From Callorhinchus milii (Eukaryota), in contig NW_024704743.1 in NCBI RefSeq assembly GCF_018977255.1, forward strand, positions 14,262,001 to 14,326,000: 64,000 nucleotides of DNA, given 5' to 3'. The translations under genes were made by a program, and so were the position numbers. The first letter of the stretch is position 1. Each line of letters starts with the position of its first letter. Positions 3,866-56,712 of the stretch are shown one piece after another. A model generated the notes under the pieces. That model was not told the origin of the DNA. It did not search any database and worked only from the letters and a program-made list of their open reading frames with translations.

Positions 3866-4274
3866 GCATTTTGTATCCCATCAACATCCTGTTATGTGAA
3901 TTTTGGTACTTAGTTAGGCTCAAGAAGCTTAAAAAAAGCACAGGAATTCCCCAGAATGGATGAGCTGTGCTCCAGGGTACTCTGAGAACCAAATAACTGG
4001 AAAGTAACCAAGAACAGGAACTCTGGCTGATCTTCGCCTCCAGGCCCAGGAGTACTGACACCTTGTTGAGACATCTTTAAGCACTCTGGGACGCGGGGCG
4101 CTATATAAGTGCAAGTTGTTGTTGTCGACACCAATTATATGAACCCTACTGCAGGATGAATGAGGTTAACTAACTCAGCATAGACCAGAGATTAAACCAG
4201 GCACCTGGGGGTCTGTATGACTTCATTTACGATAGCCATGCCTTTCGCAGGGGAAGTTATCACCGTTTCCACTG

Positions 4275-5389: not shown

Positions 5390-5729
5390 ATCAAACCTAC
5401 TTTTTGGGCGCTGTTGCAGCTGTGCCTGAGAGACATTGTTTATAAATACATGACTTGATGGCAGAAATCAAATTGAAACACTTTATTATATTGTCACTGA
5501 GGCTAAAAGAAGGGCTGATGTTTTAAAAGGCTTGTTACAATTTTATTTGTGAATGCCATGACTCTATAAATGCTCCACTGATGGTCTGATATATTCAAAG
5601 ATTGTGTCTTGGAAACAAAGATAGCGACAAAGAACAAGACTTTATTATTTTCTTTTATTGTGCTTTTATACCAGTGGGATATAGCTCCTTACCAATTGAG
5701 CTGGATCTGTTTGGTGTAGTCAGAGACAA

Positions 5730-8824: not shown

Positions 8825-10624
8825 ACCGCCGTCTCGTCTCTGTCTCCCCGGCACTGGCTGTCCCAGAGCAACAATCCCATGTGTCCCATCATTCACTCCC
8901 TCCGCTCAAACTGTCTCCTCAAGGCAAACCCAACTTCCCCCTCCCTCATTTGTACCCTCCCCAACTATCCACTCCCACCACACTCCACAGCCATCTCTCC
9001 TATATACCCTAAAATCCTCTCCGCATCACTTCTCCCTCTCAAACAAAGCCCTCACCATCCATGACCTCATCTGGACGAGGACCTCGACATTCTTGGGCTC
9101 ACAGAAACCTGGCTCCCCCCAATGACCCCATCCCCCGAGTTGAAGCCTCCCTTCCAGGCTACTCTTTCCACCACACCCCCTGTCCAAACCAATGTGGTGG
9201 CACGGTGGCCCTCATCTCCAAAGCCTCCTTTGGTCTTTCCCCCTACTCCTCTGGCTGCTTCCACTCCTTCAAACACCTCACCCTCTTCCATCCCTCTCTT
9301 CCACTGAAAATCTTCCTGGTCTACCACGCCCTAACCCCCGGCATCTTCCTCTCTGACATCTCTACTCTCCTCTCTTCCCTGTCCTTCTGCTCCGAACGCC
9401 TGCTCATAATGGGCGATTTCAACCTCCACCTAAATTCCCCTTGCACCACTTTTTCTGACTTCACTGCCCTCCTTTCCTCCCTAAACCTCACCCTTCACAT
9501 TAATTCACTGACCCACAACTGTGGCCATGCCCTCGACCTCGTCATCACTCACGGCCTTGACATTTCGACCTTAACATAATGGACAAGGCCATCTTGGACC
9601 ACTTCCTCTCACATCCCTCTCTCTTCCACAAGCACTCAACCATACTCTACCACCCATCGAAAAGGCTACCCCCTGAGACCCTCACAAAGGCCCTCACATC
9701 CGCCAATATCCTATCCGTCTGGCCTTCCACCCACGGAGATCCTGAAGCTGCCGTGCAGCTGCTCCATGATCGCCTTGCCTCCACCTTCAACTCCCTCGCC
9801 CCCTGAAATCCAGGACCATCTCCAAACCCACCCGATATAACAATCATTTCCGCTCCCTAAAAACCCAAACCCGGCTGCTCAAGTGCAGATGGCAGAAAAC
9901 TGGCCTGACAGTTCACCACCAACTGTGGCTCGAGCATCTCCATAGCTACCTCCATTCTTTGATGAGCGCAAAAGTGCCCTTCTACTCCAACATCATCTTG
10001 GAGGCAAAAAACAATCCCAAAGTTCTTTTTTCCACCACCCACTACCTCCTCCGTGTGCTCCCTCAGGCCTCCCCAATCTTCACATCCAATGCCAAATGCG
10101 AGGAGGTCATGGACTTCTTTTCATCCAAAATACATAACATCCGCCAGACAGCCTCATCCTCCTGCCTCTTGTCACCCACCACCACACGCTCTCCATTTCC
10201 CCTCACCCTCCCCATCACCAGCTCCTACCACGATCCCCATCCTACATTCCTTCCTCCCATCTCTCCCTCCTCCCTCTCACCCACCATCACCTCAATGAAA
10301 CCCACCACCTGCTGCCTCGACTCCCTCCCCACCAACTTGATGATCACCCAGCTCCCCCTCCCCTGCCCACTAATGGCTGATGTCATCAACCAGTCCCTCT
10401 CCTCTGGATCAGTCCCTGACCCCTCAAAACTGCTGTCAACACCACCCTCCTCAAAAAACCTTCCCTAGATCCCTCAAACCCCAGCCACTACCACGATACC
10501 TCTAATCTGCCCTTCCTCACAAAAGTCCTAGAACGCATTGTTGCCAATCAACTTTGCGCACCTCTTTCCTCCCACTCCCTCTTCGAACCCCTCCAGTCCG
10601 TTTTCCGCCCTGCTCACAGTACAG

Positions 10625-12291
10625 CAACAACAACAACAAGATTCCATTTATTGAGCGCCTTTCACGTCGGGAGGACGTCCCAAGGCGCTGTACAGTTGGG
10701 TCAGGACCCAAGCAGGGGGGAAATGGTCAGGGTGAGGGAAGGGAGGGAGCGAGGAGGGGGTAGAGAGTCGAGAGGGGAGCTGAAGGCACGGTCAAAGAGA
10801 AAGGTCTTGAGACCGGCCTTGAAGGAGGAAAGGGAGGAGGCGGCGAAGGCACTGGGGGATGGAGTTCCAGAGCCTAGGACCTGAGAGGCTGAAGGCCCGG
10901 CCACCGATGGTAGGGCGGTTGGGGCGGGGGATGTGGAGCAGACCGGAGCCAGAGGAATGGAGGGTACGGGCAGGTAGGTAGCGGGATAGTAGGTCGGAGA
11001 GGTAGGAGGGAGCAAGGCCGTGAATGGCCTTGTAGGTGAGGATGAGGATCTTGAATTCGATCTTCTGGGGGATGGGGAGCCAGTGGAGGCGAGCGAGGGT
11101 GGGAGTGATGTGGTCGCAAAGCCTGGTGCGGGACAGTACATGAGCTGCAGAGTTCTGAATGACCTGCAGCTTGTGGAGGGAGGTGACGGGAAGGCCGGCG
11201 AGGAGAGAGTTCCCATAGTCCAGCCTTGAGGTGATAAAGGCGTGGACCAGAGTTTCAGCCGCGTGAGGGGTGAGGTAGTGCCGTAGTCTGGCGATGTTCC
11301 GGAGGTGATGGAAGGCGGTGCCAGTTGTGGCGCGGATATGGGGGAGAAAGGACAGCTCAGGGTCGAACAGAACCCCAAGGTTTCTGACTGACTTTGAGAG
11401 GTGGAGAGTGCAGCCTTGGATGCTGATGCTGTCAGCGCCTGAGGTGCGGAGGCGCTGACGTGAGCCAATCAGGAGGGCCTCAGTTTTGCGCACGTTGAGC
11501 TGAAGAAAGTTATCTCTCGTCCAGGACTCGATGTCGGACAGGCAGCTGTCAGGACATCGGTGGTCGTGGAGTTGAGGGTAGAGGAGGAAAGGTAGAGTTG
11601 GGTGTCATCTGCATACATGTGGAAGTTGACCCCATGTCTGCGGATGATGTCACCGAGGGGGAGCATATAGAGGGTGAAGAGGAGGGGACCGAGGACAGAG
11701 CCTTGAGGGACACCGCACGAGACAGTGCGGGGGCCGGAGGAAAAACCATTCGTGGAGACAAAGTGAAGACGGTGGGAGAGGTACGACCTAAACCACTCAA
11801 GGACAGGGCCTTGAAGGTTGAGGTGGGAGGACAAGCGGTGGAGGAGGATAGCATGGTCGACCGTATCGAATGCTGCCGATAGGTCGAGGAGGACGAGGAG
11901 GCAGAGGGAGCCCTGGTCACAGATGGTCAGGATGTCATTGGTGACCTTGACCAGGGCAGTTTCTGTGCTATGGGCAGCACGGAAACCCGACTGAAGGGGT
12001 TCGAATAGTGAATGGTTGGAGAGGAAAGAGCGCAGCTGGGAGGCGACAACTCATTCCAGGACCTTGGACAGGAAGGGGAGGTTGGAGATGGGCCGATAGC
12101 TTGATAGCTGCGACGCATCGAGGGAGGGTTTTTTTAAGGTGGGAGTGATGGTGGCAGTTTTTAAGGGAATGGGAATAGAGCCAGAGGAGAGGTTGACGAT
12201 GTCTGTGATATGTGATATGTGGGGCGAGGAGGTGGAGCTGGGAGATAAGGAGTGGAGTGGGGATGGGGTCAAGGGAGCAGGTGGTGGGTTT
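10625..12291 (-). mobile_element. Younger 5'-truncated L2 (subfamily A) nested in the long L2
   Basis: [41 protein letters not shown]; CpG-rich; host sequence cacagtacag|cagagactg is continuous across it. Confidence 0.93.
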
Positions 12292-13599
12292 CAGAGACTG
12301 CGCTTGTGAAAGTTTCAAATGACATCTTCTCTATCTGTGACCCGGGCTCCCTCTGCCTCCTTGTCCTCCTGGACTTCTCCACCGCGTTCGACACAGTCGA
12401 TCACGCCATCCTCCTCCACTGCCTTTCCTCCGTCATCCACCTCAGTGGGACCGCACTCGCCTGGTTCGAGCCCTACCTCACAAACCACCAGCAGTACATC
12501 TGCACAAACGGCTTTTCCGCCCGCTCTCACCCGGTTACCTATGGGGTACCCCAAGAATCCATCCTTGGCCCCCTCCTCTTTCTGATCTATGTGCCTCCCT
12601 GTTGGAGATGTGGACGACACCCAACTCGATTTTTTCACCTCACATTGTGTTCCCCAGTCCCCTGATGTTCTGTCAGCCTGCCTGTCAGACATCAGGAGCT
12701 GGATGAGCGCAAATTTCCTTCAGCTGAATGTTGACAAGACGGAAGCCATACTCTTTGGCTCTCATCAACATCTAAAATCACATGGTTCTCACCTCCTCCA
12801 ACTACCCGACCTCCCTCTAAAACTCTCTGAACCGGTACACAACCTAGGCGTCAGGTTCGACCCCCAATTATCCTTCCTTTCCCACATCCGGTCCCTCACC
12901 AGCACTGCTTTCTTCTACCTCCGACGCATCGTCCGTCTCTGCCAATACCTCACTCCAAAAGCCGCTGAAATCCTGGTCCATGCCTTTGTCACCTCTCGGC
13001 TGGACTATTCAAATGCCCTCCTCACCGGTCTCCCCTCCACTGCCATTCACAATATTCAGGTCATCCAAAACTCTGCCACCCGCATTCTTACCCGTACGTA
13101 GCTCCACTCCCCGATTACCCCAGTCCTTGCCAGACTACACTGGCTGCCTGTCCCAGAGAGGATCGACTTCAAGATCCTCACCCTTGTCTTCAAATCCCTC
13201 CACTCCCCTGCACCCCCCTACCACCCTGACATCCTCTCTCCTCACAATAGTGCCTGTTGCCTTCGTTCCACCAGGTCTAGCCTCCTCCTTGTCCCCGGAA
13301 TCCTCCACTCCACCATCGGTGGTCATGCCTTTCCTTTCGACCGCGCTTTTGGTCACCTTCCTCCCCTTCCCCTGGCTTGGCCCTGGGATCTGTTACTGTG
13401 GAGCGCTCTGAGATGCCGTCCGGCGTTATATAAATCCAAGTTGTTGTTGTAAAGATCCCATGGTTCTATTCACAAAAAGGAGGGAATTTCTCCTGATGTC
13501 CTAGATACACTCCGAAAGATAAAATTGGTCATAATTTTTGAGCCATGGTTGTTTGTTACAACCATATTCATTACAACTACCCTTCCAAGCTTTCCCTCA

Positions 13600-14020
13600 A
13601 AATCCTCCTTGTTTACTGTTCCCCCCAAGTCTTCCCCCACCTCTCTCTCGGACATCTCCACCCTCCTATCTTCCCTCTCCCTCTGCTCTGAATGTCTCCT
13701 AATCGTAAGCAGCTTCAACCTCTATGACACCCCCTCCTGCTCTATCTCTACTGACTTCTCCTCCCTCCTCTCTTCCTTTAACATCTCCCTCCTCATTCAC
13801 TCCCCAACCCACGATCGTGGCCACCCCCTTGATCTGGTGATCACCCGGGGCCTCACCGTCTCGGACATCACCATCATCGACAAAGCCATCTCGGACCACT
13901 ACTTCATCTCCCTCCATTCTGGACTCCCTCGCCCCCCTCACCTCCCAAACTGTCTCATACTCCCGTAAATGCCCCTGGTACACCAGCCATCTCCGTTCTC
14001 TCAAGGCACAAGTGCGAGCT
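13600..14020 (+). mobile_element. L2 endonuclease-region fragment
   Basis: PTHDRGHPLDLVITRG...ISDHY motifs. Confidence 0.8.
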
Positions 14021-14065
14021 GCCGACCAAATCCAAATTAACGGTCAATCGGCAGATTTGGCTTCA

Positions 14066-14842
14066 AGACTGAGGCCCTCCTGATTGGCTCACGCCAGTGC
14101 CTCTGCAGCTCAGGCTCTGGCAACATCATCGTCCGTGGTTGCACACTTCAACTCACCAAGCCAGTCAGCAACCTAGGGGTCTTGTTCAACCCTCAACTGT
14201 CTTTTCTTCCCCACATCCAAGCCATGACCCGCTCTGCCTTCCCTCACCTCCGTACCATCACCCCACTCCACCACTACCTCACCCCTCAGGCCGCTGAAAC
14301 TCTTTTTCACGCCTTCATCACCTCCAGGCTCGACTTTGCAAATGCCCTTCTTGTCGGCCTTCTCAACTCCTCTCTCCACAGGCTGCAGATAATCCAGAAC
14401 TCTGCAGCCCGTGTCCTCTCCCGCACCAAACTCTGTGACCCCATCTCCCCCATTCTCACCCGACTCCATTGGCTCCCTATCCTTCAGAGGATCCAGTTTA
14501 AAATCCTGGTCCTCACCTACAAAATACTCCATGGCCTCCCCCCACCCTACCTCTGCGACCTTCTAACCCCTTACCAACCCGCCCACTCCCTCCGCTCAGC
14601 CATTGGCGGTAGAGCCTTCAGCCACTCTGCCCCCAACCTCTGGAATTCCATCCCCCAATCACTCCGCCTCGCCCCCTCCTTGGCCTCCTTGAAGTCCCGC
14701 CTCAAAACCCTCCTCTTCAACCATGCCATTGGCCACTCCCCTTCCCCTCCCTTCTCCCCCCCCCTGACCCCAGCTTGGGTCTGAAATGCTATACACTGTC
14801 CAGCGCCTTGGGATTCCTCCCGATGTGAAAGGTGCTATACAA
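14066..14842 (+). mobile_element. 5'-truncated L2 (subfamily A, close to 4275-5389)
   Basis: ORF 14182-14784 highly similar to the 4217-5308 peptide; (GTT)n tail. Confidence 0.92.
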
Positions 14843-15996
14843 ATGTAATCTTGTTGTTGTTTGGCATTGCTGTCTGCAAATTGGTTGACCTATTCGTCTA
14901 CAAATACACAGTCACTACACTTCACAATAAATCCCGAGAACCGTTTGAAACATTTCTCATACCAATGACATATGCACTAGAGTGATGCTATTGTCTGTGT
15001 GTGATTCCGCAGCAGGAAGAAGCATTTGTAATAACTTATGGGGACTTTATTTATAAAGCTTCATTAAATGAATAGTGAAATAGGTAGTCAGATTGAGGGA
15101 ATGAATCCCTTGCACTTGAGAATAATGCAATGATATTTGGCAAATCACTCTATCAGAGTCAGTAAAGAATTGTATTCTTCTTCTGCAGAAATGACATGAC
15201 TGGATATAATGAGTTTCTAAACTGTTCAACAACAGTTACAATCCCCTTTTCGCTTGCTCAGTGTCCAACTGTGCAGTGCTCAGAGACTTGATCCTATGTG
15301 AAAGGCGCTATATAATTGTCAGTTGTTACTGACACCGCAGGTCACCCATTTGAACACAGGTATAACAGGACACATCCCAGAATACAAAATCATATATATA
15401 CTCTATAATGATATTCTCTATCCACGGAAGGAAGCACAGACTTGATGATTTTTTGTTGCAATGTTCATTCTCAAAATGAATAATGTTTTCCCTCAGGTAA
15501 TGTGACAGCCAAAGCCAGTTATATGGAGGAGAAAGTCGTTACTGACTGGCAGCCCTGTGACATTTCAGGCAACAAGCAGTATGTTTCTTATTTACAAAGA
15601 CAACAAAGTACAGTGGGGCTTTGTCATTTTTAATTCCTCACACCAGCAGTGCATTACAATTGTTCGTGCATTTTCAGTGCGGGTGTACCCACCCTCTGGA
15701 ACTCCATCCCACATTCCCTTCCCTCCCTTGCCTCCTTCAGGGCATGACTCAAGTCCCTCCTCTTTGACCATGCCTTTGGTCACCCTCTCTGCTCTCCACC
15801 CTCCCTGATCCCAACCCACCCCCAACACACCCGGTCGAGTCCCAATTCCTAATCCCAATTCCTAAGACAAACCGGTCTTAGAAATGTAGAAAGGAATGTA
15901 GAAACGTGGTTCTGACTATGCGGCAATCCCATTCTAACATTCCCTGGTATGACATGGCTGTGCACAAATTCGCTGCCACGTTCGCCCTACAATTAC

Positions 15997-16787
15997 ACAA
16001 CAACAACAACAAAATTACATTTGTATAGCGCCTTTCACATCAGGAGGACATCCCAAGGCCCTGAACAATCAGTGTTTCAAATCCGAGCTGGGGATTAGGA
16101 TCAGGGAGGGTGGAGGGCAGGGGGCGAAGGAGGGTGATCGAAGTAACGGACGAAGAGGAGGGTCTTGAGATGGGTTTTAAAGGAGGCACGGGAGGAGGTG
16201 AGGCTGAGGGACTATGGAATGGAGCTCCAGAGGGTGGGACAGAGTGGCTGAAGGCCAGCCCCCCAATGGTGGGGTGGACGAGGTGGGGAACGTGAAGCAG
16301 GCTGGAGCCCGCTGAGCTGAGGGAGCAGGCAGGTGGGTAGGGGGTTAGGAGGTCGCAAAGGTGATGGAGGGCTTTGAAGGTGAGGACCAGTATCTCTGTG
16401 TGATGGGAAGCCAGTGAAGTCGGGCGAGGATGGGAGTGATAGGGTCATGGAGCCTGCTTGGGAAACGACACGTGCTGCAGAGTTCTGGATGATCTGCAGC
16501 CTATAGAAGGAGGAGATGGGGAGGCCGACAAGCAAGGAGTTTGCATAGTCAAGCCTGGATGTTATGAATGCGTGTACAAGGGTCTTGGCGGTCTGTGGTG
16601 TGAGACATTGGCGGAGCCAGATGATATTGTGGAGGTGGGGGAAAGCAGAGTGGGTCATGGTGTAGATGCGGTGTAGAAAGGATAGTTGGGAGTCAAACAA
16701 GATGCTAAGGTTCCAGACTGGCTTAGTAAGGTGAAGTGTGCATCCTTCAATGGTGATGCTGCCAGCACTGAGATGAGGAGGCGCTAC
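15997..16787 (-). mobile_element. 5'-truncated L2 inserted in a SINE 3' end (SINE pieces ~15955-15996 and ~16788-16867)
   Basis: SRLDYANSLL peptide, (CAA)n at left end; SINE body/tail collinear on both sides. Confidence 0.85.
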
Positions 16788-17339
16788 TCTTTACATTATA
16801 TTCTGTAAAGAGCTTTCTGACATGACATGATTAGGCACTGTATCAAAAGCAAGGATTATTATTATTACAGCACTGGTGTTCTGTGGAGCCCAGGTAACCA
16901 TATATATACATATACCCAATTTCCAGCACTGAGCAGCTGGCATCTCGCATTAAAAAAAAAGGCCAGCTTTGGGATCATCACTGGCATCACACACAGATAT
17001 TTGTGAGTTTGTGCACTAAGTGCAGGGAGGGCAGTGAGACATGTGCACGATGCTCGAAAGAACGTTGCTTACATCACTTCCTGCACATTGTAGGTTAAGC
17101 CCTGTTCAGCACCACTGATGGCACTTTTCACAAGTACGGACATCAGCAGCACTTCTTTCACATAACGCACAGGAATAGAATTAACATCAGTGACGACCCA
17201 ACAACCTGGAATTTGGCCATTTTTTCTTACTTCACTTGTGACCCACCTGCTTAGATATCGGACTCAGCTGAATATGTTATAACAGGGTTGTTTTGTATTT
17301 ATAATAATAATAAATACTGATCCGAACACTCTATCCAAT

Positions 17340-18277: not shown

Positions 18278-19380
18278 CAGAGTTCCTCAGGGCTCTGGCC
18301 TCGGTCCTCTCCTCTTCAACGTGCACATGCTCCCCCTTTGTGGCATCATCCACGGACATTGTGTCAACTTCCACGTGTATGTGGATGACACCCAACTCTA
18401 TTTCTTTGCCTCCACCCTTAACCCCAGGACCACTGCTGTCCTGACAGACTGCCAGTCAGACATCAAGTCCTGAATGAAGGCCAACTTTCTAAAGTTGAAC
18501 ATCAGCAAGACCGAGGCTCTCCTGACTGGCTTTAACCAGTGGCTTGCATCAGCGTCTCCGGACCTCAGGCACTGGCAGCATCAGTATCCATGGATGCACA
18601 CTCCACCTCACCGAGCCAATCAACAGCATCAGCGTCTTACTCAACCTCAACTGTCCTTTGTTCCCCACATCCATGCCACGATCGCTCTGCCTTCCCCCAC
18701 CTCCGCAACAATGCCCGACTCTGCCACTGCCTCACCCCTCAGGCCACTGAAACCATCCTACATGCCTTCATTATATCTAGGCTTGACTATAACTCACTGC
18801 TTGTCGGCCTTCTCAACTCTTCCCTCCACAAGCTGCAGGTTATCCAGAACTCTGCAGGTCGTGTCCCACACTAGGCTCCGTGATCCCATAACACCCACCC
18901 TTGCCCGGCTCCACTGGCTTCCCATCCCTCAGAGAATCGAGTTCAAAATCCTCGTCCTCATCTTCAAGGCCCTTCGTGGCCTTGCCCCCTCCTACCTCTC
19001 CAACCTGCTCCCCTTTATCAGTCTGGCTGCTCCCTCCGCTCAGCAGGCTCTGACCTGCTCCATGTCCCCCGCCCACTCCACCCCACCATAAGCATTCGGG
19101 CCTTCAGCCTCTCTGCCTCCACCCTCTGGAAATCCATCCCACATGCCCTTCGCCTCACTCCCTCCCTTGCCTCCTTCAAGGCACATCTCAAGACCCTCCT
19201 CTTCGACCATGTCTTCGGCCACCCTCCTACTCTCTCTGTCCTCCACCCCTCCTGATCCCAACACCACCCCATTCCCCCCACTCAGGTCCTAATCCCTAAT
19301 TCCTGACTGATCAGTGCCTTGGGATGTTCTCCTGACGTGAAAGGCGCTTTACAAATATAATTTTGTATTGTATTGTGTAT
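18278..19380 (+). mobile_element. 5'-truncated L2
   Basis: [33 protein letters not shown]; (TTGTA)n-like tail. Confidence 0.9.
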
Positions 19381-27035: not shown

Positions 27036-28280
27036 ATGGAGGATCCCACATCCAGCAGAGAGAAGAGACCTTCAGTATGGGAAGGATTTGAACCCACAAG
27101 CTACCCAGTGCTCCGGTAATGTGGCTTTTTAAAGCAATATCAATTTCAGTTGTGTGAGATGATGAGACAATTTATTAACTGTTTCTTTTAAGTAAACAAT
27201 ATATCTGTCATGAAAAACACACAAAGGTCACCAGGAATAACATAAAAATCTGATAATTCTCAGAGCTAAGATTTGCTTTTATTGTTTAATGCAACTTTGC
27301 ATTAATTCACTGCAATATTAGGAATTCTATTCATTGTGTCAATCTTGGTAGAGACAGCTGCCTGAGCAGCTATTTAACAGCAGAGAGTTTAAATGCTGTT
27401 ATTTATCTTCTGGGCTTCACAGTCAGTGCTGTGGGGCATTTCTAATTGATGGTCTGCCCTTGTGTTCCTGCATCAAACCCATAATGATTAATGAGATTAC
27501 TGTGCTCATATTATGACTTTAGAACACATGACATTTATCTAAAGTGGCTGAACCAGACATTTATAACAATTCCCTTGCGTAGACAAAATGAATACAGGTT
27601 TATCTGCACGTAGAAGGAATGTTAATCATTCCCCACTGTCTCCCATTATTGGCTGAATGTCAGTAAAACAATGGTCACCCTTGACCCTGGACCAGCTCTG
27701 CATTGGATAGAATGAAATGCAGGCGTGAAATGTGCAGGTTTTCATGAATGTATTCAGTGTGATAATTCCCAGATAGAATGCAAGAATGAGACAAGGGAAA
27801 TTTCGCCCTACAATCTGTGCAGCAGTGAAACAAGCTGAATATTTGCCGGTCATTAAGTCACCAATGCTTTTCCCTGCTTTTCAACACGTCCTCCCGATGT
27901 AAAAAGCGCTATATCAAATGCAAGGATTATTATTAAGATCTCAGTACAATGTACTGGAGACATTTCCATGAGGATGGTTCTTCTTGGCACTTGAGGATTA
28001 AGCAACTAAACTAAATCCTGCATGGATTGGCTTGCTGTGAAAGTGGCTGCTTTTTGAAGCAATCACGTATTGTAGCTCACCTGATTGAGTGTACATTTCC
28101 GTGCTATTCATCAGCAGAGATCTGTAGGGCATCAGAATCAGATTACATTTCTCACACAGCAGTAAAGCTAAGCGTCAGTGTGAAATGACACTCTTCCATT
28201 ACCTTTGGCACAAAGCAATGGAGATTATGCGGCAGAATCTATTGTTCATTTCTGAGTTTTGAGCTAGGGGGTCCAGCTTC

Positions 28281-28410
28281 GAATCTGACAAAGGGTCATG
28301 GACCCAAAACGTTGACTCACTTTCGTTTCTCCATAGATGCTGCCTGACCTTCTGAGTGTTCCAGCGACTTCTGTTTTTGTTTCAGATTTCCAGTATCTTC
28401 AGTATTTTGC
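28281..28410 (+). mobile_element. Partial copy of the same hammerhead-bearing element, core decayed
   Basis: CTGACAA-A-GGGTC-atg-GACCC-AAAACGTT followed by tctccatagatgctgcctgacct...tttgtttcagattt, shared with 38.5-38.9 kb. Confidence 0.7.
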
Positions 28411-29134
28411 GTTATGTCAAGCTTGGATCAGTTGGCCATCTGTCTCTTATCACAATTCTATCTGTAATTTAATCCTGAAATGCATCACAGCAGCATTTTC
28501 ACATGCTGCTGTCAGTGGCCTTCATTAAGCATGGACTTTGAGCAAACTAAAATATTCAGACATGTTGAAAAATGCCAGTTGGAAATCCTGCTGTTGACAG
28601 ATCTCAAGAGTCATAATGAGGTCAAGGCCTGAAACAGTGTCCAAAATGTAATACGTTTTAGCTTCACAGTAAATACTGTTAAATATAATTAGTTTATTTG
28701 TATACAAATACAAAGGCTAATTTGTACATAGCAATGACCAACACAACAACCAAGAGGTGATGATCAATCAACAAAATGTGTTGGCCAGGAAGGCTGTCTC
28801 GGTTTAAATAGTATCTCGAGTTCCTTAAGGTCCACCTAAGCAAGTGCTGGTACTTAAGACCACTAGTATATAAGTGGCCCAACATTAAACTGAAATCAAG
28901 CTATGAAGTTTGTCGCAGTTGGTAGCCCTCTCTCACTTATGGTGTTAGAGCATTGTGGGTTCAAGCAGCATGCCAGGACCTGGAGTCATTACCTACATTG
29001 ACACAGACATGCCATCATTTAAGTGAGATACGCATCAATCAGAAGATGTCAGCCTCATTTAGTTGGTAGGCTTCTCACTTAGTTGGAGAGGTTCAACTCT
29101 CTAATCCTGGATAAGAGCCAATTTTCTACAGCTA

Positions 29135-29970
29135 AATATCAGCAAGACCAAAGCTCTCCTGATTGGCTCACGCCAGTGCCTCCGCACCTCAAGCGCTTGC
29201 AGCATCAGGCATGGATAATGGGGGAGAAAGGACAGTTAAATGCACATTCCACCTCACCAAGCCAGTCAGGAACCTGGGCATCTTGTTCGACCCTCAACTG
29301 TCCTTTCTCCTCCATATCCGTGCCATGATCTACTCTGCCTTGTCCCACCTCCGCAACATTGCCTGACTCCACCACCGCCTCACCCCTCAGGCCACCGAAA
29401 CCCTCATTCACGCATTTGTCACCTCAACTACGGAAACTCCCTCCTTGTTGGCCTCCCCAACACCACAAGCTGCAAATCATCCAGAACTCTGCAGCCCAAG
29501 TCCTGTCCCTCACCAAGCTCCTGACCCCATCATCCCCACGCTTGCCCAGCTCCACTGGCTCTCCATGTCTCAGAGGATAGAATCAAAATCCTCGTCCTCA
29601 CTTTCAAGGCTCTCCCCGGGTTTGCCCCTCCTACCTCTCTAACCTACTGACCCCCTATCAATCTGTCCGCTCCCTCCGTTCAGCAGGCTCCAGCCTGCTC
29701 CAGGTCTCCTGCCCGACCCACCCTATCATCAGCGGCTGGGCTTGCAGCCTCTCTGCCCCCATCCTTTGGAACTCCATCCCACAGTCCCTTCACCTTGCTC
29801 CCTCCCTTGCCTCCTTCAAGGCACAACCCAAGACGCTCCTTTTCGACCGCGCCATCAGCCACCCTCCTACCTCTCTGTCCTCCCTCATCCCAACCTTGCA
29901 CCCCCACGCTCGGGTCCTGATCCCCGACTGTTCAGCGCCTTGGGACATCTGTTGTTGTTGTTGTTGTTGT
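29135..29970 (+). mobile_element. 5'-truncated L2
   Basis: [19 protein letters not shown] peptide; (GTT)n tail. Confidence 0.88.
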
Positions 29971-30084
29971 TCTAGCTCCACGGGACTTTGAACTGATAAC
30001 TTCCCCTGGCACACCAATGCAGTCCTTCAGATGAGGCATTAAACCTAGGTCTTGTCTCACTGTTGAAAATCCCATTTTATTTGG

Positions 30085-30310
30085 AAAGAGGAGGTTTGCA
30101 GAGGAGATTTAGGGGAATAATTCCAGAGATAAAGGGCTACAGTTATGAGGAAAGAATCGAGAAGCACAGTTTGTTTTCAATGGAGCAGAGAAGGTTGAGG
30201 GGAGACCCGATGAAGGTGTACAAAATCATGAGGGGTTTTAACAGGGTAAATAGGGAGTTATTTCCAATGATAGGGGAGTCAGTGACTAGGGGACATAATT
30301 CTAAGATAGC
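30085..30310 (+). mobile_element. CR1 fragment
   Basis: YSYEERIEKHSLFSMEQRRLRGD. Confidence 0.8.
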
Positions 30311-30671
30311 CACAATTGGCTGCTGTGTTGTTTGCACAGGAGCTTTGAGAGATTATAACCTTCTGAGTGCTTTATCAAATGCAACGATTATTATTAATTA
30401 TTGTTAAAATTAAAAGCCTTCACACTCATATTAAACAAACATAAATGTTCAGTTCACAATAAATGGCAACAAATAATTCTAATTTGTATCAGGTAGTCTG
30501 CTGTTTTAGTAGAAGAGGAGTTCCAGTTTATAAACCAGGTGGAAAATAATCTTCTCTAGAAAGCATGTGTGCGTAGCTAAGAGAAAACATAGTGAAAATG
30601 CAAAGCTTCGGATTAGATTTATGTGGTAGAATGTTTAAATGTTTGAAAAGTAATTGTGATGAGAAACGATG

Positions 30672-33600
30672 ATAACAACAACAAGAAATTACATTTGTAT
30701 AGCGCCTTTCATGTCAGGAGGACGTCCCAAGGAGCTGGACAGTCAGGGATCCGACTCAAGCTGGTGGTTGGGATCAGGAGGGGTGGAGGGTGGGGAGGGG
30801 TGGGGTAGGAGGGTGGCCGAAGGCGCAGCTGAAGATGAGGGTTTTGAGACTGGTTTTGAAGGAAGCAAGGGAGAGGGTGAAGCTGAAGGACTGTGGGATG
30901 GAGTTCCGTAGTGTGGGGGCAGAGATGCTGAAAGCCCGCCTGCAAATGATGAGGCGCGCAAGGCGAGCGACGTGCAAGGAGGGGGACATGTAAGACGGGG
31001 GACGTGAAGCAGGCCAGAGTCCACTGAGTGGAGGGAGCGGACAGATTGGTAGGAGGTCACAGAGGTAGGGGGGAGCAAGCCTGTGGAAGGCTTTGAAGGT
31101 GAGAACCAGGATCTTGAACTTCATCGTGACGGGGAACCAATGGAGCTGGGCAGGGATGGGGGTGATTAGGAAGCGGAGCCTGGTGTGGGAGAGGAAACGG
31201 GTTGCAGAGATCTGGATGAGCTGCAGCCTGTGGAGGGAGGAGTTGGGGAGGCTGTCAAGAGATTGCGTAGTCGATCCTAGATGTGATGAATGTTTGGATG
31301 AGGGTCTCGGCGGCCTGCGATGAAAGACAATGGCAGAGCTGGGCAATGTTGCGGAGGTGGGTAAAGGCAAAACGGGTCATGGCGCGAATGTGGGCGATGA
31401 AGGACAATTGAGAGTTGAACAGGATGCCAAGATTATCTCTTGACTCTGTGAGGTGTAGAGGGCATCCACGAAGGCTGATGCTGTCCATGCCCGAGGTATG
31501 CAGGCACTAACGGGAGCCAAGCAGGAGGGCCTTGGGTTTGTTCAACAGCGTCTCAGAGCGCTTCACAGTAACGGATCCCGGGGCCGAGCCAGGGGGAGGG
31601 GGAGGAAGGTGATCAAAGGCTCAGTCAAAAAGGTCTTCAGCAAGACCTGAAAATAGGAAGAGAGAGTGCGAGGCGAAGGGAGTGAGAAAGGGAGTTCCAG
31701 AGCCTCGGGGTGTAATGGCTGAAGGTAGAGAACTCGAGGGACAAGGAGGAGGCCAGACTCGGTGGAACGAAGGCAACGGGCACTGTTTTGAGGAAAGAGG
31801 AGGTCAGAGAGGTAGAGGGTTGCAGAGGAGTGGAGGAATTTGAATACAAGGGTGAGGATCTTGAAGTTAATCCTCTCTGGGACAGGCAGCCAGTGCAGTC
31901 TGGCAAGGACTGGGGTAATCAGGGAGCGGAGTTTGGTGCGGGTAAGAATGCGGGCGGCAGAGTTTTGTATGACCTGGATTTTATGGATGGTAGTAGAGGG
32001 GAGACCGACGAGGAGGGCATCTGAATAGTCCAGCCGAGAGGTGACAAAGGCATGGACCAGGGTTTCAGTGGATTTTGGAGCAAGGTATTGGCAGAGATGG
32101 GTGATGCGTCGGAGGTGGAAGAAAGTGGTCCTGGTGAGGGACTGGATGTGAGGAAGGAAGGATAATTGGGGGTCGAACCTGACATCCCCAAGAGGGAGCA
32201 TATAGATCAGAAAGAGGAGGGGGCCAATGGATCCTTGGGGTATCCTGCAGGGATGAGAGTGGGAGGAGAAGCCGTTTGTGCAGGTGTACTGCTGGCGGTT
32301 CATGAGGTAGGACCAAAACCAAACGAGAGCGGTCCCACTGAGGTGGATGACGGAGGAAAGGCGGTGGAGGAGGATGGCGTGATCGACTGTGTCGAAAACG
32401 GCAGAGAGATCCAGGAGGACAAGGAGACAGAGGGAGCCCTGGTCACAGATAGAGAGGACGTTGTTTGTGACTTTCACAAACGCAGTCTCTGTACTGTGGG
32501 TAGGGCGGAAACTGGACTGGAAGGATTCGAAGAGGGAATGGGAGGAGAGGTGTGCGCAGAGTTGATTGGCAATAACGCATTCTAGGACTTTTGTGAGGAA
32601 GGGCAGATTAGAGGTAGGGTGGTAGTGGCTGGGGTTTGAGGGATCTAGGGAAGGTTTTTTGAGGAGGGGGGTGATGACAGCAGTTTTGAGAGGGGCAGGG
32701 ACTGGGACTGATCCTGAGAAGAGGGACTGGTTGATGACATCAGCCATTAGTGGGCAGAGGAGAGGGAGTTGGGTGACCATCAAGTTGGTGGGGAGGGGGT
32801 CAAGGCTGAAGGTGGTGGGTTTCATTGAGGTGATGGTGGGTGAGAGGGAGGAGGGAGAGATGGGGAGGAAGGAATGTAGGATGGGGATCGTGGTAGGAGC
32901 TGATGATGGGGAGGGTGAGGGGGAACGGAGAGAGGGTGGTGGTGGGTGACAACAGGCAGGAGGATGAGGCTGCCAGGCAGAGGTTATATATTTTGGAGGA
33001 AAAGAAGTCCATGACCTCCTCACACTTGGCATTGGATGTGAAGATTGAGGAGGCCTGAGGGCCGCACGGAGAAGGTAGTGGATGGTGGAAAAAAGGATTT
33101 TAGGATTGTTTTTATCCTCCAAGATGATGTTGGAGCAGAAGGCCGTTTTTGCTCGCATCAACGAACAGCGGTAACTGTGGAAATGCTCGAGCCACAGTTG
33201 GCGGTGAACTGTCAGGCCAATTTTCCACCATCTGCACTCAAGCAGCCGGGTTTGGAGATGGTTGTTGTACCAGGGGTATCGGGTGTTTGGTAATGGTCCT
33301 GGATTTCAGGGGGACGAGGGAGTTAAGGTGGAGGAGAGGCGATCATGGAGCAGCTGGACGGCTGCTTCAGGATCTCCGCGAGTGGAAGACCAGAGGGATA
33401 TTTGATGATGTGAGGGCATTTGTGAGGGTCTCAGGGGGTAGCCTTTTCTATGGGTGGTAGAGGATGGTTGAGGGTTTGGTGGAGGAGAATGTGAGTGGAG
33501 AAGGAGATGAGGAAGTGATCTTGTCCACTATGCTAAGGTTGGAAATGTCAAGGCCGTGGGTGATGACGAGATCGAGGGCATGGCCACGGTTGTGGGTCAG

Positions 33601-34516
33601 TGAATTAATGTGAAGGGTGAGGTTTAGGGAGGAGAGGAGGGCAGTGAAGTCAGAAGAAGTGGTGCAAGGGGAGTTTAGGTGGAGGTTGAAATCGCCCATT
33701 ATGAGCAGGCTTTCGGAGCAGAGGGACAGGGAAGAGAGGAGAGTAGAGATTTCAGAGAGGACGAAGACAGGGGGCTTAGGGCGCGATAGACCAGGAGGAT
33801 TTTCTGTGGGAGAGAGGGATGTAAGAGGGTGAGGTGCTCGAAGAAGGGGAAGCAGCCAAAGGAATAGGGGGTAAGGCCAAGGGAGGCTTTGGAGAGCAGG
33901 GCCACCCTGCCGCCACGTTCATATTCAACTGGGGGAGCAGTGGTCCTGGAGTCGAGGGTGGAGGCGGAGAGGTAGAGTTGGGTGTCATCCACATCCATCT
34001 GGAAGTTGACCCCATGTCTACGGATGATGTCACCAAGAGGGAGAATGTAGATTTTGAAGAGAGGAGAAAGGACAGAGCCTTGAGGGATGCCACACGTGAT
34101 GATGCAGGGATGGAGGAGAAGCTGTTAATGGAGACAAAGTGGAGATTGTGGGAGAAGTAGGATTTGAACCAGGCACGGGCAGGTCCGTGAAGGTTGAGCT
34201 GAGCGGAGAGGCGGTGGAGGAGGATAAGTCGGTCGACAGTATCAAAGGCAGCAGAGGTCGAGGAGAACAAGGAGGCAGAGAGAGCCCTGGTCGTAGATGT
34301 TCAGAATGTCATTAGTGACTTTCACCAGGGCTGTTTCTGTTCTGTGGGCAGCACGGAAATCCGATTGGAGGGGTTCAAAGAGGGAATTGCAAGAGAGGAA
34401 AGAGCGAAGCTGGGGCACGCCAATTCGTTCCAGGGCCTTGGAGAAGAAAGGGAGGTTGGAGATGGGGCGATAGCTGGAGACTAGTGATGGGTCCAGGGAA
34501 GGTTTTTTGAAGACCA
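30672..34516 (-). mobile_element. L2 subfamily A (30672-31544 + 33917-34516) interrupted by long L2 subfamily B
   Basis: Outer pieces collinear; gttca duplicated at 31540-31544 and 33917-33921. Confidence 0.82.
31545..33916 (-). mobile_element. Long L2 subfamily B (APE part + RT with YADD region deleted)
   Basis: 532-aa chimeric ORF 31563-33161; strongly similar to 9200-10620 and 12292-13450. Confidence 0.92.
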
Positions 34517-35574: not shown

Positions 35575-35990
35575 GGGAATAAAGTGCTTCATAGGATTTA
35601 CTGCAAAGTGTATATGTGTATTTTGTAGGCAAACACAGCAACCAAATTGCACACAGCAAATAACCATTAAGTGAATGATCAATTTCATCTGGGGGAGTGT
35701 TGGCCAGGACACCAGGAGAAACTCCTATCTTTTTTCGAAAAGTGCCATGGGAACTTTAACTTCCAACTGAACAGGCAAGACGAGAGCACCGTTTAATGCC
35801 TCGTCTGAAGTACGGCACCTCCAACGATGCTACGTTACCCCAGCACTGCAATAGAGAATCAGCCTCATCTGTAAGCTCAAAGTCCTGTCGTGGCAATGTC
35901 CCACAAACAGCCAGGAAGCGAATGATTACTTTTATCTGGGCCAGGATTGATGGTCAGACATTGGGAGAAACTCCCTTCTCCAGGTTTTAC
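35575..35990 (-). mobile_element. DeuSINE body (with SINE tails at ~35120 and ~35385)
   Basis: Deu motifs on the reverse strand. Confidence 0.7.
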
Positions 35991-37160: not shown

Positions 37161-37259
37161 TCAGATATCAACAAGAATATCAAGTGGCACAAAGCCTTTC
37201 TTCTTCCCACTGCACACCTTGATGAAGCCATTAATCTCCTCACCCTTGTCCACGCAGAT
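37161..37259 (-). CDS. STAC: STAC terminal coding exon, ICVDKGEEINGFIKVCSGKKKGFVPLDILVDI-stop
   Basis: 99 nt, poly-T/gcag acceptor, TGA at 37163-37161; matches STAC1 C-terminus pattern GFIRVLSGKKKGLIPLDVLENI. Confidence 0.96.
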   Translation of the reverse strand: MCVDKGEEINGFIKVCSGKKKGFVPLDILVDI

Positions 37260-37417
37260 CTGCAAAAAAAATAGAAACATGTAAAAGGCTGCATCATGGT
37301 TAGTCTTGTTTTAACAATATCCCAGCATCAAACAATCAGTGAGTTGATTTTCAAGAATTGCGACAGTGAAAAAATACATATGACAATTTTTTACATTGCC
37401 ACGTCACCAAATTAAGT

Positions 37418-37690
37418 TAACAACAACTTGCATTTATATAAATTCAATCAGCGTCTCGGAGCTCTTAACAGTGGCGGAGTCTGATGCCGGCAGTAGGTGA
37501 CCATAAGGTCGTTACGAAGAGGAAGGTCTTTAGTCGTGATCTAAAAGAGGGGAAGGGGAGGCAAGATGGAGAAATTGAGGGAGAGGTTTCCAACTCTTCA
37601 GGGTTAGTGGCTGAAAGTGTGGCCGCCGATGGTTGAATGGAGGGAACGAGGGACTATCAGGAGGCTAGAGTTAGCCGAGGGGAGGCAGGA
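37418..37690 (-). mobile_element. Old L2 3' end
   Basis: caacaacttgcatttata tail; G-rich L2 antisense body. Confidence 0.7.
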
Positions 37691-38490
37691 TTAATAAATT
37701 AAACGATTAATTACGAGTAACTCTGGGCCAGCATCAGACAGTCGAACACACACTGATCTTGGGTTTTGTGCTGGTACAGCCAATTTATATCTTGGAGATG
37801 TAGTATAGTCGATACATTTTTCTGAAGTGACCCAATATCTTATTTCCTATGTCTTGCAGTGTGAAGGCCATGTACAGTTTAGGCCTTGTACGATTTATCC
37901 AATATCAAATTTATTGCAGTTCACAGATAACCAAATACCATTTCTTTCCCGGAATGGGAAGTTCTATTTATGCAATAGGTGTGGCCTTAGAAATGGTTTT
38001 AAAAGGATGTCTATGGCTACATTGTGAGAAAAATGGGCTCCTCTCAGCCCCTACCATAATAGTAGTGTGCATTAAGAAACTTCTTGTCCTTCCTGAAAGC
38101 TAAACCCAATATGTCTCTTTAGAAGAGATATGTTTCTATATCAAGTGCAAACATTTTTATTATTATTATTTTAAAATCTTTACATTTAGAGAAAATTCCA
38201 TCTCTCTTTTCTGTAATTTTTCATTTTATGGATAGTGACATTTAAAACTACACTAATGTTATAGGAATAAAGATACAAATTCTAAGCATCGTAAGGCTGA
38301 GATTATAAAATATTTTACAAGAGATTGAATAAATATTTGAACAAGAACAATTGAAAAAGGTTACAGTGGGGAGAGCAGGGAATTGGGATTATGTACAATT
38401 AGGATTGAGATTGGAGTTAGAGCAGATTGAACTGGGATTAGAGTAGGTAGAATTAGGATTCAAGTAAATAACTCCAGTGGATAAAATAGC

Positions 38491-38889
38491 ACTGGTTTAG
38501 ACCTGCTGAATGTTCCCAGCGATCTCTGTTTTTGTTTCAGATTTCAGGCATCTGCAGTATTTTGCATTTTATTTATGTTTAATTCACTGCCACTTCCCTT
38601 CTAGGAATGCCTACCTTGAAGAAGTTTTGCTCTTCTCTCCGATGTGACTTTTGTTCTTCCCTTTTTACCCTGGTCACCTTCTTTGCTCCTGTCCTTCACC
38701 CCATTTTCTGCTTTGATTTTCTTGCCCCGCCTGCTCTCTCCATTAGGCCTTAAAACCTCTTCCTCCCAACTTCCCCCAGTTCTGACGAAGGGTCGTGGAC
38801 CCGAAACGTTGACCCACTTTCCCTTCTCCATAGATGCTGCCTGACCTGCTGAGTGTTCCCAGCAATCTCTGATTTGTACCAGTTTAGAC
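38491..38889 (+). mobile_element. Small non-coding Penelope/retrozyme-like element with hammerhead core, 29-bp terminal redundancy and ~12-bp TSD
   Basis: Direct repeats 38500-38528 and 38843-38871; flanks actggtttagac / accagtttagac; hammerhead core inside. Confidence 0.75.
38778..38813 (+). ncRNA. Minimal type-I hammerhead ribozyme motif
   Basis: CTGACGA-A-GGGTC-gtg-GACCC-GAAAC-GTT: catalytic core boxes, perfect 5-bp stem II, palindromic AACGTT in place of stem III. Confidence 0.7.
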
Positions 38890-39556
38890 TGGATAGACTA
38901 AGTGTGATCCATGTGTAGTTGTATGATTCTCTGAGAAATCTTTATGTCTCTAGTACTATCTGTAGTATTCTAATATTAACTAGCTAAAACCAATGTTTAA
39001 TGCAAATACCTAAAATAATAAAAATTAAAACATAATTTCCCTTCTCTTCACTGCTCTTCTCTTGGGATATCCTCCTGATGTGAAAGGCTCCATACAAATA
39101 TAATTTGTTGTTGTTCTTCTTCTTCTTCCCTTCTCTTCTCTGATCTCTTGTTTTTAGTATAAAGTTTACCTTTTACCTATTTCCTAACAGCATAGCAGGA
39201 TAAAACATTGGTTTTGTTCACTGAATAAATGTATGAATCACTTCTAACAAAATATAAAACAACAACTTGCATTTATTTAGCTCCCTTTGTCTTGGAGCTT
39301 TTAATGTAATAATAATTACTTTTCATCCAGGACCTTTCATATATGGAGGATGTCTCAAAGCGCTTTGCAGGAATTACTGTGAAGTATAGGGACTATAATT
39401 TTTAAGTGAAATATTTTGGTTGCATTAATTCAAAAATATGNTTTTTTTAAAGAAGGTGTTTGTGCCATTGTTTGAAGAATAGAATCACTTGTGCAGATTT
39501 TAATTTTCATCGACATTTAAATTCAATAACAAATAGGACCTAGGAAAGGTACATAC

Positions 39557-39694
39557 TTGATTTTCCTTTACATTTATCTCTCCTTGTTCTTTACAGCCTG
39601 TGAATAGTTTGGTGCATCTGAAGATCCTTTCACCCAGCATCACCCTTTGGACAAAGGTGGCAGGAAAATATCCCACTCGGTCTTCAATTTTACC
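39557..39694 (-). CDS. STAC: STAC coding exon (10), [46 protein letters not shown]
   Basis: 138 nt, tttcag acceptor, GTATGT donor; end of SH3-1 and start of SH3-2. Confidence 0.96.
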
Positions 39695-39789: not shown

Positions 39790-40080
39790 AGTCTGGCCCA
39801 GTTGGTAGACTCTTGCCTCGAATTCAGAAGGTTGTGGGTTCAAGCCCCACGTCAGAACTCAAACTTGCATAGTCAAAACTGACACTTCAATGCAGTGCAG
39901 GGGTGTGCTGTATAGTATGCAATACAGTCCTTCAAAGAAGACATTAAACCCAGGTCCCGTCTGCCTGTTCAGGTGGATGTTAAAAATCCCACGGCACTAT
40001 TCAAAACAGAAGGGAGTTTCTCCTGATGTCGTGACCAACAAGCCCTCAAATAAAATTAATTAGTCATTCAGTTCATAACT
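39790..40080 (+). mobile_element. DeuSINE (5' two thirds)
   Basis: tRNA-like head with ggttcaagccc, ccgtctgcctgttcaggtggatgttaaaaatcccacggcactattc. Confidence 0.8.
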
Positions 40081-53740: not shown

Positions 53741-55406
53741 CCGATCTACGCTTTCTGATTCAACTACCACTTCAGGCAGCGAGTTCCACAATCTCACTAC
53801 ACTCAGCATGAAATAGTTCCTCCTAAATTCTCGTTTAGATCCCATGTCGCTATTTTATACTTGTAAAGTACACTTGTGCTTTTTTTTACTGAAATATTCA
53901 TTCCATCCGATTCTCACAGCTGTTGTTGTGTCTTTCCTTGCATTGCACTTCAGAGTATTCCAATCAGTTCATGACCCATCAGCTCTTTGTACAAATAATC
54001 TTATTAACCACTTCCTGACAGCTTTTTTCAGCAGCCTCTTTGTTGACATGTATTTTTACTCTTTATCCTAATGGAGTTAGAAAAAACATTCAAACGTGAA
54101 AACCGAAACAACAACATGAAAATGGCACAAAAAAAATGACCAGAAAAAATGCCTCAGGATATACAATTCGATGTATGAGATGGATTGTAAGTTGAGGCAT
54201 TTTTGACCATTCAAGAGACCTCTGCTCTGAAGCAATCTAGTTCCCAGAATATGCTGTCAACAGATTGTTATCCATTCAAAGTGGAATTGGGTAAACAATC
54301 AAGGGATGTGGAAAAACAGATGGAATGTAGGATTAGTGTTTTTTAAAAAAAGGGCGATTTAGCGATTCAGAAAACACAGATGTAGCACTGAAACAGACTT
54401 GATGATCTGATTATCTCCTGTGCTCATAGAAAATATCTATGTTACTTAGTTCCATATCCACCCTATGTTTTCACTGTTTCATCATTGTAATTCAAGCATT
54501 GTTAACTAAAACTGAGGATAATAAGAAAAAAATAAAAAGGTTAAATAAAGCAAACAGAACTCTAAACTTTGAGATTTTCTTCTCTTTCCACGAGATTCTC
54601 AAGCCATCTAATATATGGCAATAGGTAGGAACCGAGTCCCCAATGGACAACGTTTATTGTTCAGAGTAATACTGTCATTGTTCCAGACTGTCCAATGAAC
54701 TGAACTGTCATTTAATTCTGAAATCCTGTGAGATAGCATCTAGTATCCATCATCTCTCCCAATTTCTTCCAGGTCTCCCAGTTCATATGCCTTACACAAG
54801 GCTCCAACTCATAAAGGACTCGGCAGCTGATATAGTCTCCCACACCAGGCTCCACAAGGCCATTAGCCATATTCTTTCCAAGCTCAACTAGCTCCAAGAA
54901 CCAAGGGGATGCACTTTATAATCCTCACCTTGACCTTCAATTCCCATCATGATGTTACCTAACCCTGAAAGTACAACCATCTCCAGTTCTATTCTTTTTC
55001 CTTGTACCCTCTGCACTTCTGATCCTGTCTAATATTCAAAACCCTCTTAATGACCTCTTCTCGTTAAATTATTTTCAGTTCATTGTGTCACAAAAAATAG
55101 TCACAAAATAATTTTATGCCCACAAAATATACAATTAAATTTACTTTACAGTATATTCTGTGAAGCGTTTTGAGACATCTCAAGGTGGTAAGGTATTAAA
55201 TTCAAGGATTATTATTATTAAATTGCTATGCTTTGAAACTTTCCATATTTGTTCTTTTACAAACTATTCTTATTTTGAATATGTGGATACTGTCTTTTAA
55301 ATTTAATTGATGAGTGTTTATTTTTAAAATAAAGTGCTAAGACATTTTATTATGTTCTCTCTTTCCTTATGTGGTGGCTCCATATAATTCAACAATCCTT
55401 AATGGA

Positions 55407-56712
55407 AACAACAACAACAAAATTACATTTATATAGCGCCTTTCATGTCAAGAGGACGTCCCAAGGTGCTGGACAGAGTTACGGAGCCGAGCTGAGGGTC
55501 GGGGTGGGGCAGGGGGGAGGGTAGGGCAGGAGGCAGGGAGATCAAAAGCACAGTCGGAGAGGAGGGTCTTGAGGTGGGTCTTGAAGGTGATGAGGAAGAG
55601 GGAGAGGAGGGACTGTGGGATGGAGTTCCAGAGGGTGGGTGCAGAGTGGCGGAAGGCCCGCCTGCCAATAGTGGGGCGAGCAAGGCGGGGGTCGTGAAGC
55701 AGGCAGGAGCCCGCTGAGCGGAGGAAGCGAAGCGGAGCCTCGACGTAATGAATGCGTGTATGAGGGTTTCGGCGGCCTGCTGTGTGAGACAGTGTTGGAG
55801 CCGGACGACGTTGCGGAGGTGGGGGAAGGCAGAGCGGCTCATGGTGCAGATGTGGGGTAGAAAGGATAGTTGAGGGTCAAACAAGACCTTAAGGTTCCGG
55901 ACTGGCTTAGTGGGGTAGAGTGTGCAACCATGGATGGTGATACTGTCAGCGCCTGAGGTGTGGAGGTGCTGACGGGAGCCAATCAGGACAGCCTCAGTCT
56001 TGTTGACGTTCAACTGAAGAAAGTTAGCTCTCATCCAGCACTTGATGTCTGACAGACATTCTGTCAGCACAACAGTGCTCCTGGTGTCAAGGGTGGAGGC
56101 AGAGAGGTAGAGTTGGGTATCATCCGCATACGTGTGGAAGTTGACCCCATGTCTGTGGATGATGTCACCAAGAGGGTGCATATAGATATTGAAGAGGAGG
56201 GGACCAAGGACAGAGCCCTGAGGAACGGTGCACGAGACGGTCCGGAGCTAGAAGAGAAGCTATTTGAGGAGATGAAGTGCAGGCGGTGTGAGAGGTACAA
56301 TCTGAACCAATGAAGGACAGCGCCGTGGTGGTTGATGTGAGAGGAGGGGCAGTGGATGAGGATAGAGTGGTCTACGCTGTCAAAAGCAGCAGAGAGGTCA
56401 AGAAGGACGAAGAGGCAAAGGGAGCCCTGATCGCAGATGGACAGAATGTCATTTGTCACTTTGACCAGGGCTGTTTCTGTGCTGTGGGTGGCATGGAAGC
56501 CCGATTGAAGGGGTTCGAGAAGGGAATGGTGGGAGAGGAAGGAGCGAAGCTGAGAAGCAACAACTCATTCCAGGACCTTGGAGAGGAAGGGGAGGTTGGA
56601 GATGGGGTGGTAGTTAGGGAGTAGAGGAGGGTCCAGGGAGGGNTTTTTAAAGATAGGAGTGATGACAGCGGTTTTTAAAGGGGTGGGAACAGTACCAGAG
56701 GACAGGGAGAAA
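55407..56712 (-). mobile_element. 5'-truncated L2 (subfamily A)
   Basis: [38 protein letters not shown]; (GTT)n tail. Confidence 0.92.

Follow-up and report, generated by a model that had tools for sequence, protein, structure and literature searches.

An internally deleted Penelope-like element as the probable source of a terminally redundant 343-bp hammerhead unit in a STAC intron of Callorhinchus milii

A 343-bp unit that carries a minimal hammerhead motif and repeats its own beginning at its end lies at 38491-38889 of a 64,000-nucleotide stretch of Callorhinchus milii DNA (the window, whose first letter is position 1 of all coordinates here). The locus is probably a Penelope-like element (PLE) that inserted as a partial tandem and lost its body, an old and dead copy of the endonuclease type. 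As part of the same reading, and held with the same confidence, the 33-bp overlap of the two ends would be the usual PLE pseudo-LTR, and the occurrence of 3′ ends about 38 nt apart matches the PLE 'tail'.

The terminal redundancy is clear. The direct repeat 38500-38528 and 38843-38871, with a spacing of 343, is identical at 27 of 29 positions and extends to 33 nt at 91%, while among 60 shuffles of the 600-nt region no 29-mer repeat did better than 21/29; in this respect the original prediction holds. It also holds for a target-site duplication (TSD) of about 12 bp: 38491-38502 and 38878-38889 agree at 10 of 12 positions, a score equalled by 21 of 5000 random flank pairs, and the two mismatches, as read from the letters, are compatible with CpG decay on opposite strands. 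The trinucleotide GAC at 38500-38502 is common to the left TSD, of which it is the end, and to the start of the element (5′ microhomology).

Read 5′ to 3′ on the + strand, the unit has the following parts. The left terminal repeat (38500-38532) corresponds to the last ~33 nt before the tail-less pseudo-LTR end and would come from a strongly 5′-truncated upstream copy. It is followed by a ~38-nt tail (38533-38570), whose last position is the common 3′ end of the family, and then by what contig alignments indicate to be the head of a longer element (38571-38687, with an ATG at 38607), which comes after the tail in a small fraction of the relatives. After an internal junction at 38687|38688, either a deletion or a template jump, comes a pyrimidine-rich stretch (38688-38777, 78% C+T), taken to be the long element's 3′ non-coding end, then the hammerhead (38778-38814), and finally the right terminal repeat (38843-38875), which ends the element without a tail. 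This right end is ~38 nt short of the common 3′ end, as expected of a tail-less start. The halves on either side of the junction, 38500-38687 and 38688-38875, are 188 nt each, which is probably a coincidence because each outer end is placed only to within 2-3 nt.

A second copy in the window, at 28284-28413 (+), shows the abundant form of the repeat on its own. It is a solo ~130-bp pseudo-LTR with tail, bracketed by its own TSD (28271-28282 and 28416-28427, 10/12), and its order is hammerhead, repeat, and then the 38 nt that are found after the left repeat of the 343-bp unit, with its end at the position that corresponds to 38570. Nothing of the middle of the 343-bp unit is present in it. Its hammerhead core, again as read from the letters, has lost G8 and G12, and it begins 1-2 nt before the CUGA of the core and so is without most of the stem I 5′ strand. 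Read directly from these two loci, the two 3′ ends are ~36-38 nt apart. Several traits of the PLE type are thus found: the part order of a partial tandem of direct pseudo-LTRs, 10/12 TSDs at both window copies, an optional tail of 30-40 bp at one end (the two window loci), and many 5′-truncated copies with a common 3′ end (contig alignments and the solo copy).

The relatives were sought in contigs from 4 of 24 public runs of C. milii (X1, X2, X5 and X9), aligned to 38200-39200 at 80% likeness; the figures rest on 32 of 22,288 pieces, 15 of 67 joints and 24 of 865 loose ends, those listed, and summed contig depth does not equal copy number. In X1 the depth is 1.2e5-5.1e5 over 38778-38879 and 0.8-1.2e5 over 38506-38573, then 1119 in the next bin, a drop of ~100-fold across 38570, and it is 76-154 over 38642-38743 versus 3-9 over the unique right flank. 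The gap between the ~130-bp piece (hammerhead to 38570) and the middle is ~1000-fold, and is seen in all four runs. Among the loose ends listed, peaks stand at 38570 (109 contigs in X1 and 122 in X2) and at 38779 (95 and 106), and both coincide with ends of the solo copy. The depth profile and these peaks together lead to the deduction that the abundant element is the ~130-bp piece with its fixed 3′ end rather than a 343-bp unit in permuted form. (Loose ends at 38825, 38862, 38863 and 38875 were considered as element ends and rejected, as the consensus there runs on in family sequence.) Many relatives lose their match at 38779, the 5′ edge of the hammerhead, and not at the predicted cut (38811). 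This would fit the copying of uncut RNA, diverged subfamilies being another possible cause.

The junction has a signature of its own in the relatives. Among the 32 pieces listed, none bridges 38687|38688, six start exactly at 38688 (X1 r4, r5 and r6; X2 r13 and r14; X9 r27) with 21-822 unlike letters upstream, and three stop close by, X1 r2 at 38688 with 321 unlike letters beyond, r3 at 38687 and X2 r11 at 38684. From the counts of differences the six starters represent about four distinct loci. The starts and stops at the seam imply that in relatives the right half is the end, and the left half the start, of something longer. Alignment starts also pile up at private mismatches (4 pieces at 38762 and 3 at 38752), so clustering alone is no proof of a junction. 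The window's own letter at 38716 has a depth of ~4 in X1 and 11 in X2, near the level of the flank contigs (3.3 and 7.3), which gives no sign of young identical sisters; however, the contig of the locus itself is missing over part of the middle, the window-type letter being absent at 38735, 38742 and 38747 in X1 and X2, and the alignment filter could hide sister copies as well. The copy is 12-18% diverged from its relatives. Two long contigs, X5 record 17 (1080 nt) and X9 record 25 (1676 nt), carry the left half to 38640 with the same private letters and may represent one sister locus in a transcript, X5 and X9 being RNA runs by guess only. Among the joints listed, other loci connect the head to the pseudo-LTR at different breakpoints (38646>38831 and 38657>38779), and there are opposite-strand joints, as in inverted PLE insertions.

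These features agree with what the PLE literature describes. The pseudo-LTRs of PLEs contain minimal hammerheads, mostly in truncated copies that stand alone (Cervera and De la Pena 2014, PMC4209133). Insertion takes place as a partial tandem, with or without a tail of 30-40 bp (Craig et al. 2021, PMC8557442), and TSDs of 8-10 bp, microhomology on the 5′ side and internal deletions are described as well (Arkhipova et al. 2013, PMC3846280). As in vitro work shows, two internal start sites of reverse transcription flank the tail, and uncut RNA is the main template (PMC11167929). The locus resembles EN+ PLEs (clades Penelope/Poseidon and Neptune) both in the organization of its copies (mostly solo and truncated, partial tandem, tail, TSD and internal deletions) and in its hammerhead, and differs from them in that the coding body is missing here. 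In Poseidon of Anolis (PMC11167929) the ORF starts inside the hammerhead, in contrast to the present candidate ATG, which comes after the tail. The shark repeat itself is not described in the literature that was searched: a 19-nt stretch gave 0 matches and one supplementary file of PMC8557442 no match, while the supplements of a 2026 preprint (Li, Clavereau and Pollet, bioRxiv 10.64898/2026.07.22.740005) may list a related chondrichthyan family. DNA pattern scans of viral contigs, prokaryote genomes and metagenomes yielded 0 matches, as expected for a vertebrate repeat.

On the preferred reading, insertion of a PLE, an RT/GIY-YIG protein would have nicked the target, with reverse transcription primed at the tail-less start site, 38875. 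The hammerhead-bearing pseudo-LTR and the 3′ non-coding end would then have been copied, with a stop 33 nt into the upstream pseudo-LTR, and joining via the 3-nt microhomology would have left the 12-bp TSD. The body may have been skipped by a template jump at insertion or deleted afterwards, two routes that are indistinguishable here. Provided that the 986-nt record represents a single uninterrupted copy, the missing body probably exceeds ~0.7 kb.

The predicted intact hammerhead core with a perfect stem II is present at 38782-38810 (CTGACGA-A-GGGTC(GTG)GACCC-GAAAC-GTT), where 5/5 stem II pairs are Watson-Crick. In order, the motif comprises the stem I 5′ strand (38778-38781), the core (38782-38788), an unpaired A (38789), stem II (38790-38802), GAAAC-GUU (38803-38810, with the predicted cut after 38810) and the stem I 3′ strand (38811-38814), whose last position is mutated in this copy. 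A minimal-hammerhead descriptor finds this one match in the window, versus a mean of 0.27 per shuffled window in 100 shuffles (~0.0014 per 343 bp), and none on the strand of STAC. An Rfam hammerhead search, proposed earlier as a check, gave no match up to E 10. The features listed for minimal PLE hammerheads in PMC4209133 are present, namely the unpaired nucleotide 9/10.1 before stem II, the G10.1-C11.1 pair and the palindromic 15.2-16.2. A canonical type-I hammerhead, with helix III and loop-loop contacts, is not what the unit holds, a looped stem III being absent from it.

Stem I pairing is as weak as had been foreseen, being 3 bp in this copy with an A-C mismatch at 38778/38814. The letter at 38814 is unlike that carried by 96% of the X1 depth, and the change both leaves stem I with 3 bp and gives rise to a competing helix, which wins the predicted fold over 38760-38850. 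With the majority letter stem I is 4 bp, and the predicted pairing rises from 0.66 to 0.99 for stem II and from ~0.2 to 0.6-0.8 for stem I. A minimal hammerhead from a PLE did not cleave as a monomer, and cleaved little as a dimer (PMC4209133). The copy in the STAC intron is most likely inert.

The element lies on the + strand and STAC on the − strand. The exon at 39557-39694(−) has STAC as its best match (6b25, E 2.5e-17) and the last coding exon of the gene is 37161-37259(−), so the element is antisense within the last coding intron (37260-39556), as originally placed. The hammerhead should be a passenger there, and should not cut STAC pre-mRNA because it is on the opposite strand to STAC, single, and has a stem I of 3 bp. 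The 'old CR1 3′ end' of the original prediction finds no confirmation for the flank, which matches none of the window's own repeats and may resemble a CR1 tail. In the left flank, within the old repeat used as target, there is a 21-bp two-copy tandem duplication (38417-38460). The same intron also holds a LINE stub at 39061-39118. RT-encoding LINE copies, presumably L2, are numerous elsewhere in the window (4200-5390, 9190-14860, 15990-16790, 18280-19380, 29100-33920 and 55400-56700), with a 580-aa frame at 31566-33305(−) among them; most end in (TTG)n, and they account for 8 RVT_1 hits. A dispersed short repeat at 39817-40066, which we assume to be SINE-like, has relatives at 802-995, 3245-3429 and 35672-35813.

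The original prediction had seen in this locus a retrozyme, a circular or concatemeric RNA of ~343 nt copied once around. Of that reading, retro-insertion with a TSD and a Penelope-type minimal hammerhead stand, and the 343-nt circular or concatemeric family is not supported. In its best form, the proposal is a small, non-autonomous, PLE-derived retrozyme family in which the deleted 343-bp unit gave a dimer that was cut by its hammerheads and circularized, and the circle was then reverse transcribed once round plus 33 nt. The length and the GC content (~46%) of the unit do fit non-LTR retrozymes, which are 150-450 bp and below 50% GC, and the preprint reports such families in one chondrichthyan with a mean of 363 bp. 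The majority letter at 38814 gives back a stem I of 4 bp, ACGU (38806-38809) could pair between two copies, and the gap in the own-locus contig means that sisters may be hidden. However, with no listed piece crossing the junction, a fixed 3′ end at 38570 and the ~1000-fold difference in depth inside the unit, 343 bp is not the size in which the family repeats, and the sharing of fixed ends, which had been named in advance as evidence against a circle, is largely what is found, with the 3′ end at 38570 and the internal junction. The right end, moreover, is at the tail-less site and not at a random point. There is a single hammerhead and no array of two or more tandem units, each with its hammerhead, at this locus, the only one examined for it. 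Self-pairing of the unit, in this decayed copy, is unremarkable (z −1.43, with 10 of 100 shuffles equally stable), and stem II is lost in its predicted circular fold. The retrozyme proposal is on balance unlikely, and a cartilaginous-fish retrozyme would have a precedent even if it held.

Comparison with described retrozymes points the same way on classification. The metazoan non-LTR kind consists of tandem units of 150-450 bp that are expressed as self-paired circles (Cervera and de la Pena 2020, PMC7229834), and the preprint of Li, Clavereau and Pollet, which traces them to PLE pseudo-LTRs, asks for two hammerhead units in succession and also accepts minimal motifs. The locus is like them in unit length, GC, a type-I hammerhead, a long TSD and a proposed PLE origin, and unlike them in having a single hammerhead, 1.1 units where they have tandem ones, a minimal instead of a canonical motif, a unit that is not whole in relatives among the pieces listed, and weak self-pairing in this copy. 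The locus does not qualify as a retrozyme, although one could arise from the parts that it has.

The next alternative concerns what the parent was, and turns on coding potential. The frame led by the ATG at 38607 begins 37 nt beyond the tail; it may be a candidate ORF start, and presumably resembles the ORF starts of shark PLEs. Protein searches with this frame gave nothing (HMMER 0 hits, and the Atlas no usable hit), though it offers 27 informative residues from a diverged copy; a 98-aa antisense frame also matched nothing, a weak blank. Such blanks neither support nor refute an ORF. Pfam, run on 59 of 101 long window frames and the STAC exon, hit 9 of the 60 (8 RVT_1 and 1 Exo_endo_phos), with no GIY-YIG match among the 59 frames scanned. 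Within 38588-38609, a pyrimidine tract that ends in TAG 2 nt upstream of the ATG looks like a splice acceptor; introns near the pseudo-LTR are known in PLEs (PMC4209133). If the middle is taken as non-coding, in keeping with the blank searches, the copy would be a deletion of a longer, non-autonomous element that shares the PLE pseudo-LTR, and not of a coding PLE. Non-autonomous PLE derivatives with pseudo-LTRs are described for Chlamys (PMC8557442), as are unrelated sequences carried between pseudo-LTRs (PMC3846280). Against such a parent, which is improbable, the blanks count for little at 27 informative residues and 12-18% divergence. The position of the ATG-led frame so soon after the tail, and its presumed likeness to shark PLEs, also speak for a coding one. 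That two independent truncated insertions, or recombination between copies, placed the halves side by side is very improbable, since, for all the abundance of the family and the inverted or compound joints in relatives, one TSD encloses the complete unit, the halves run collinear with each other and the sequences of the middle seldom occur in relatives.

Read as an internally deleted PLE, the locus is one degenerate copy of a repeat that is very abundant and of a kind already described, and matters little in itself. It does carry a warning: 'one unit plus a short overlap', on which the case for a circle had leaned, is not diagnostic of a circular intermediate, because a PLE partial tandem followed by deletion gives the same shape, partial tandems being the standard form of PLE insertions (PMC8557442 and PMC3846280).

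A further possibility, which we consider quite unlikely, is that the locus is a snapshot of the birth of a retrozyme. The PLE reverse transcriptase would repeatedly jump, on its own RNA, from the 3′ end onto the head and so create mini-units, each of which would keep every cis signal (the hammerhead, both priming sites and the head), and some, perhaps the 343-bp one, would go on to arrays and circular RNAs. Cited for this are joints in other loci, among those listed, where the head is joined to the pseudo-LTR at other breakpoints (38646>38831 and 38657>38779). If such mini-units recur and seed arrays, they would lead directly from autonomous PLEs to animal retrozymes, a descent that the 2026 preprint infers only from co-occurrence and pseudo-LTR trees.
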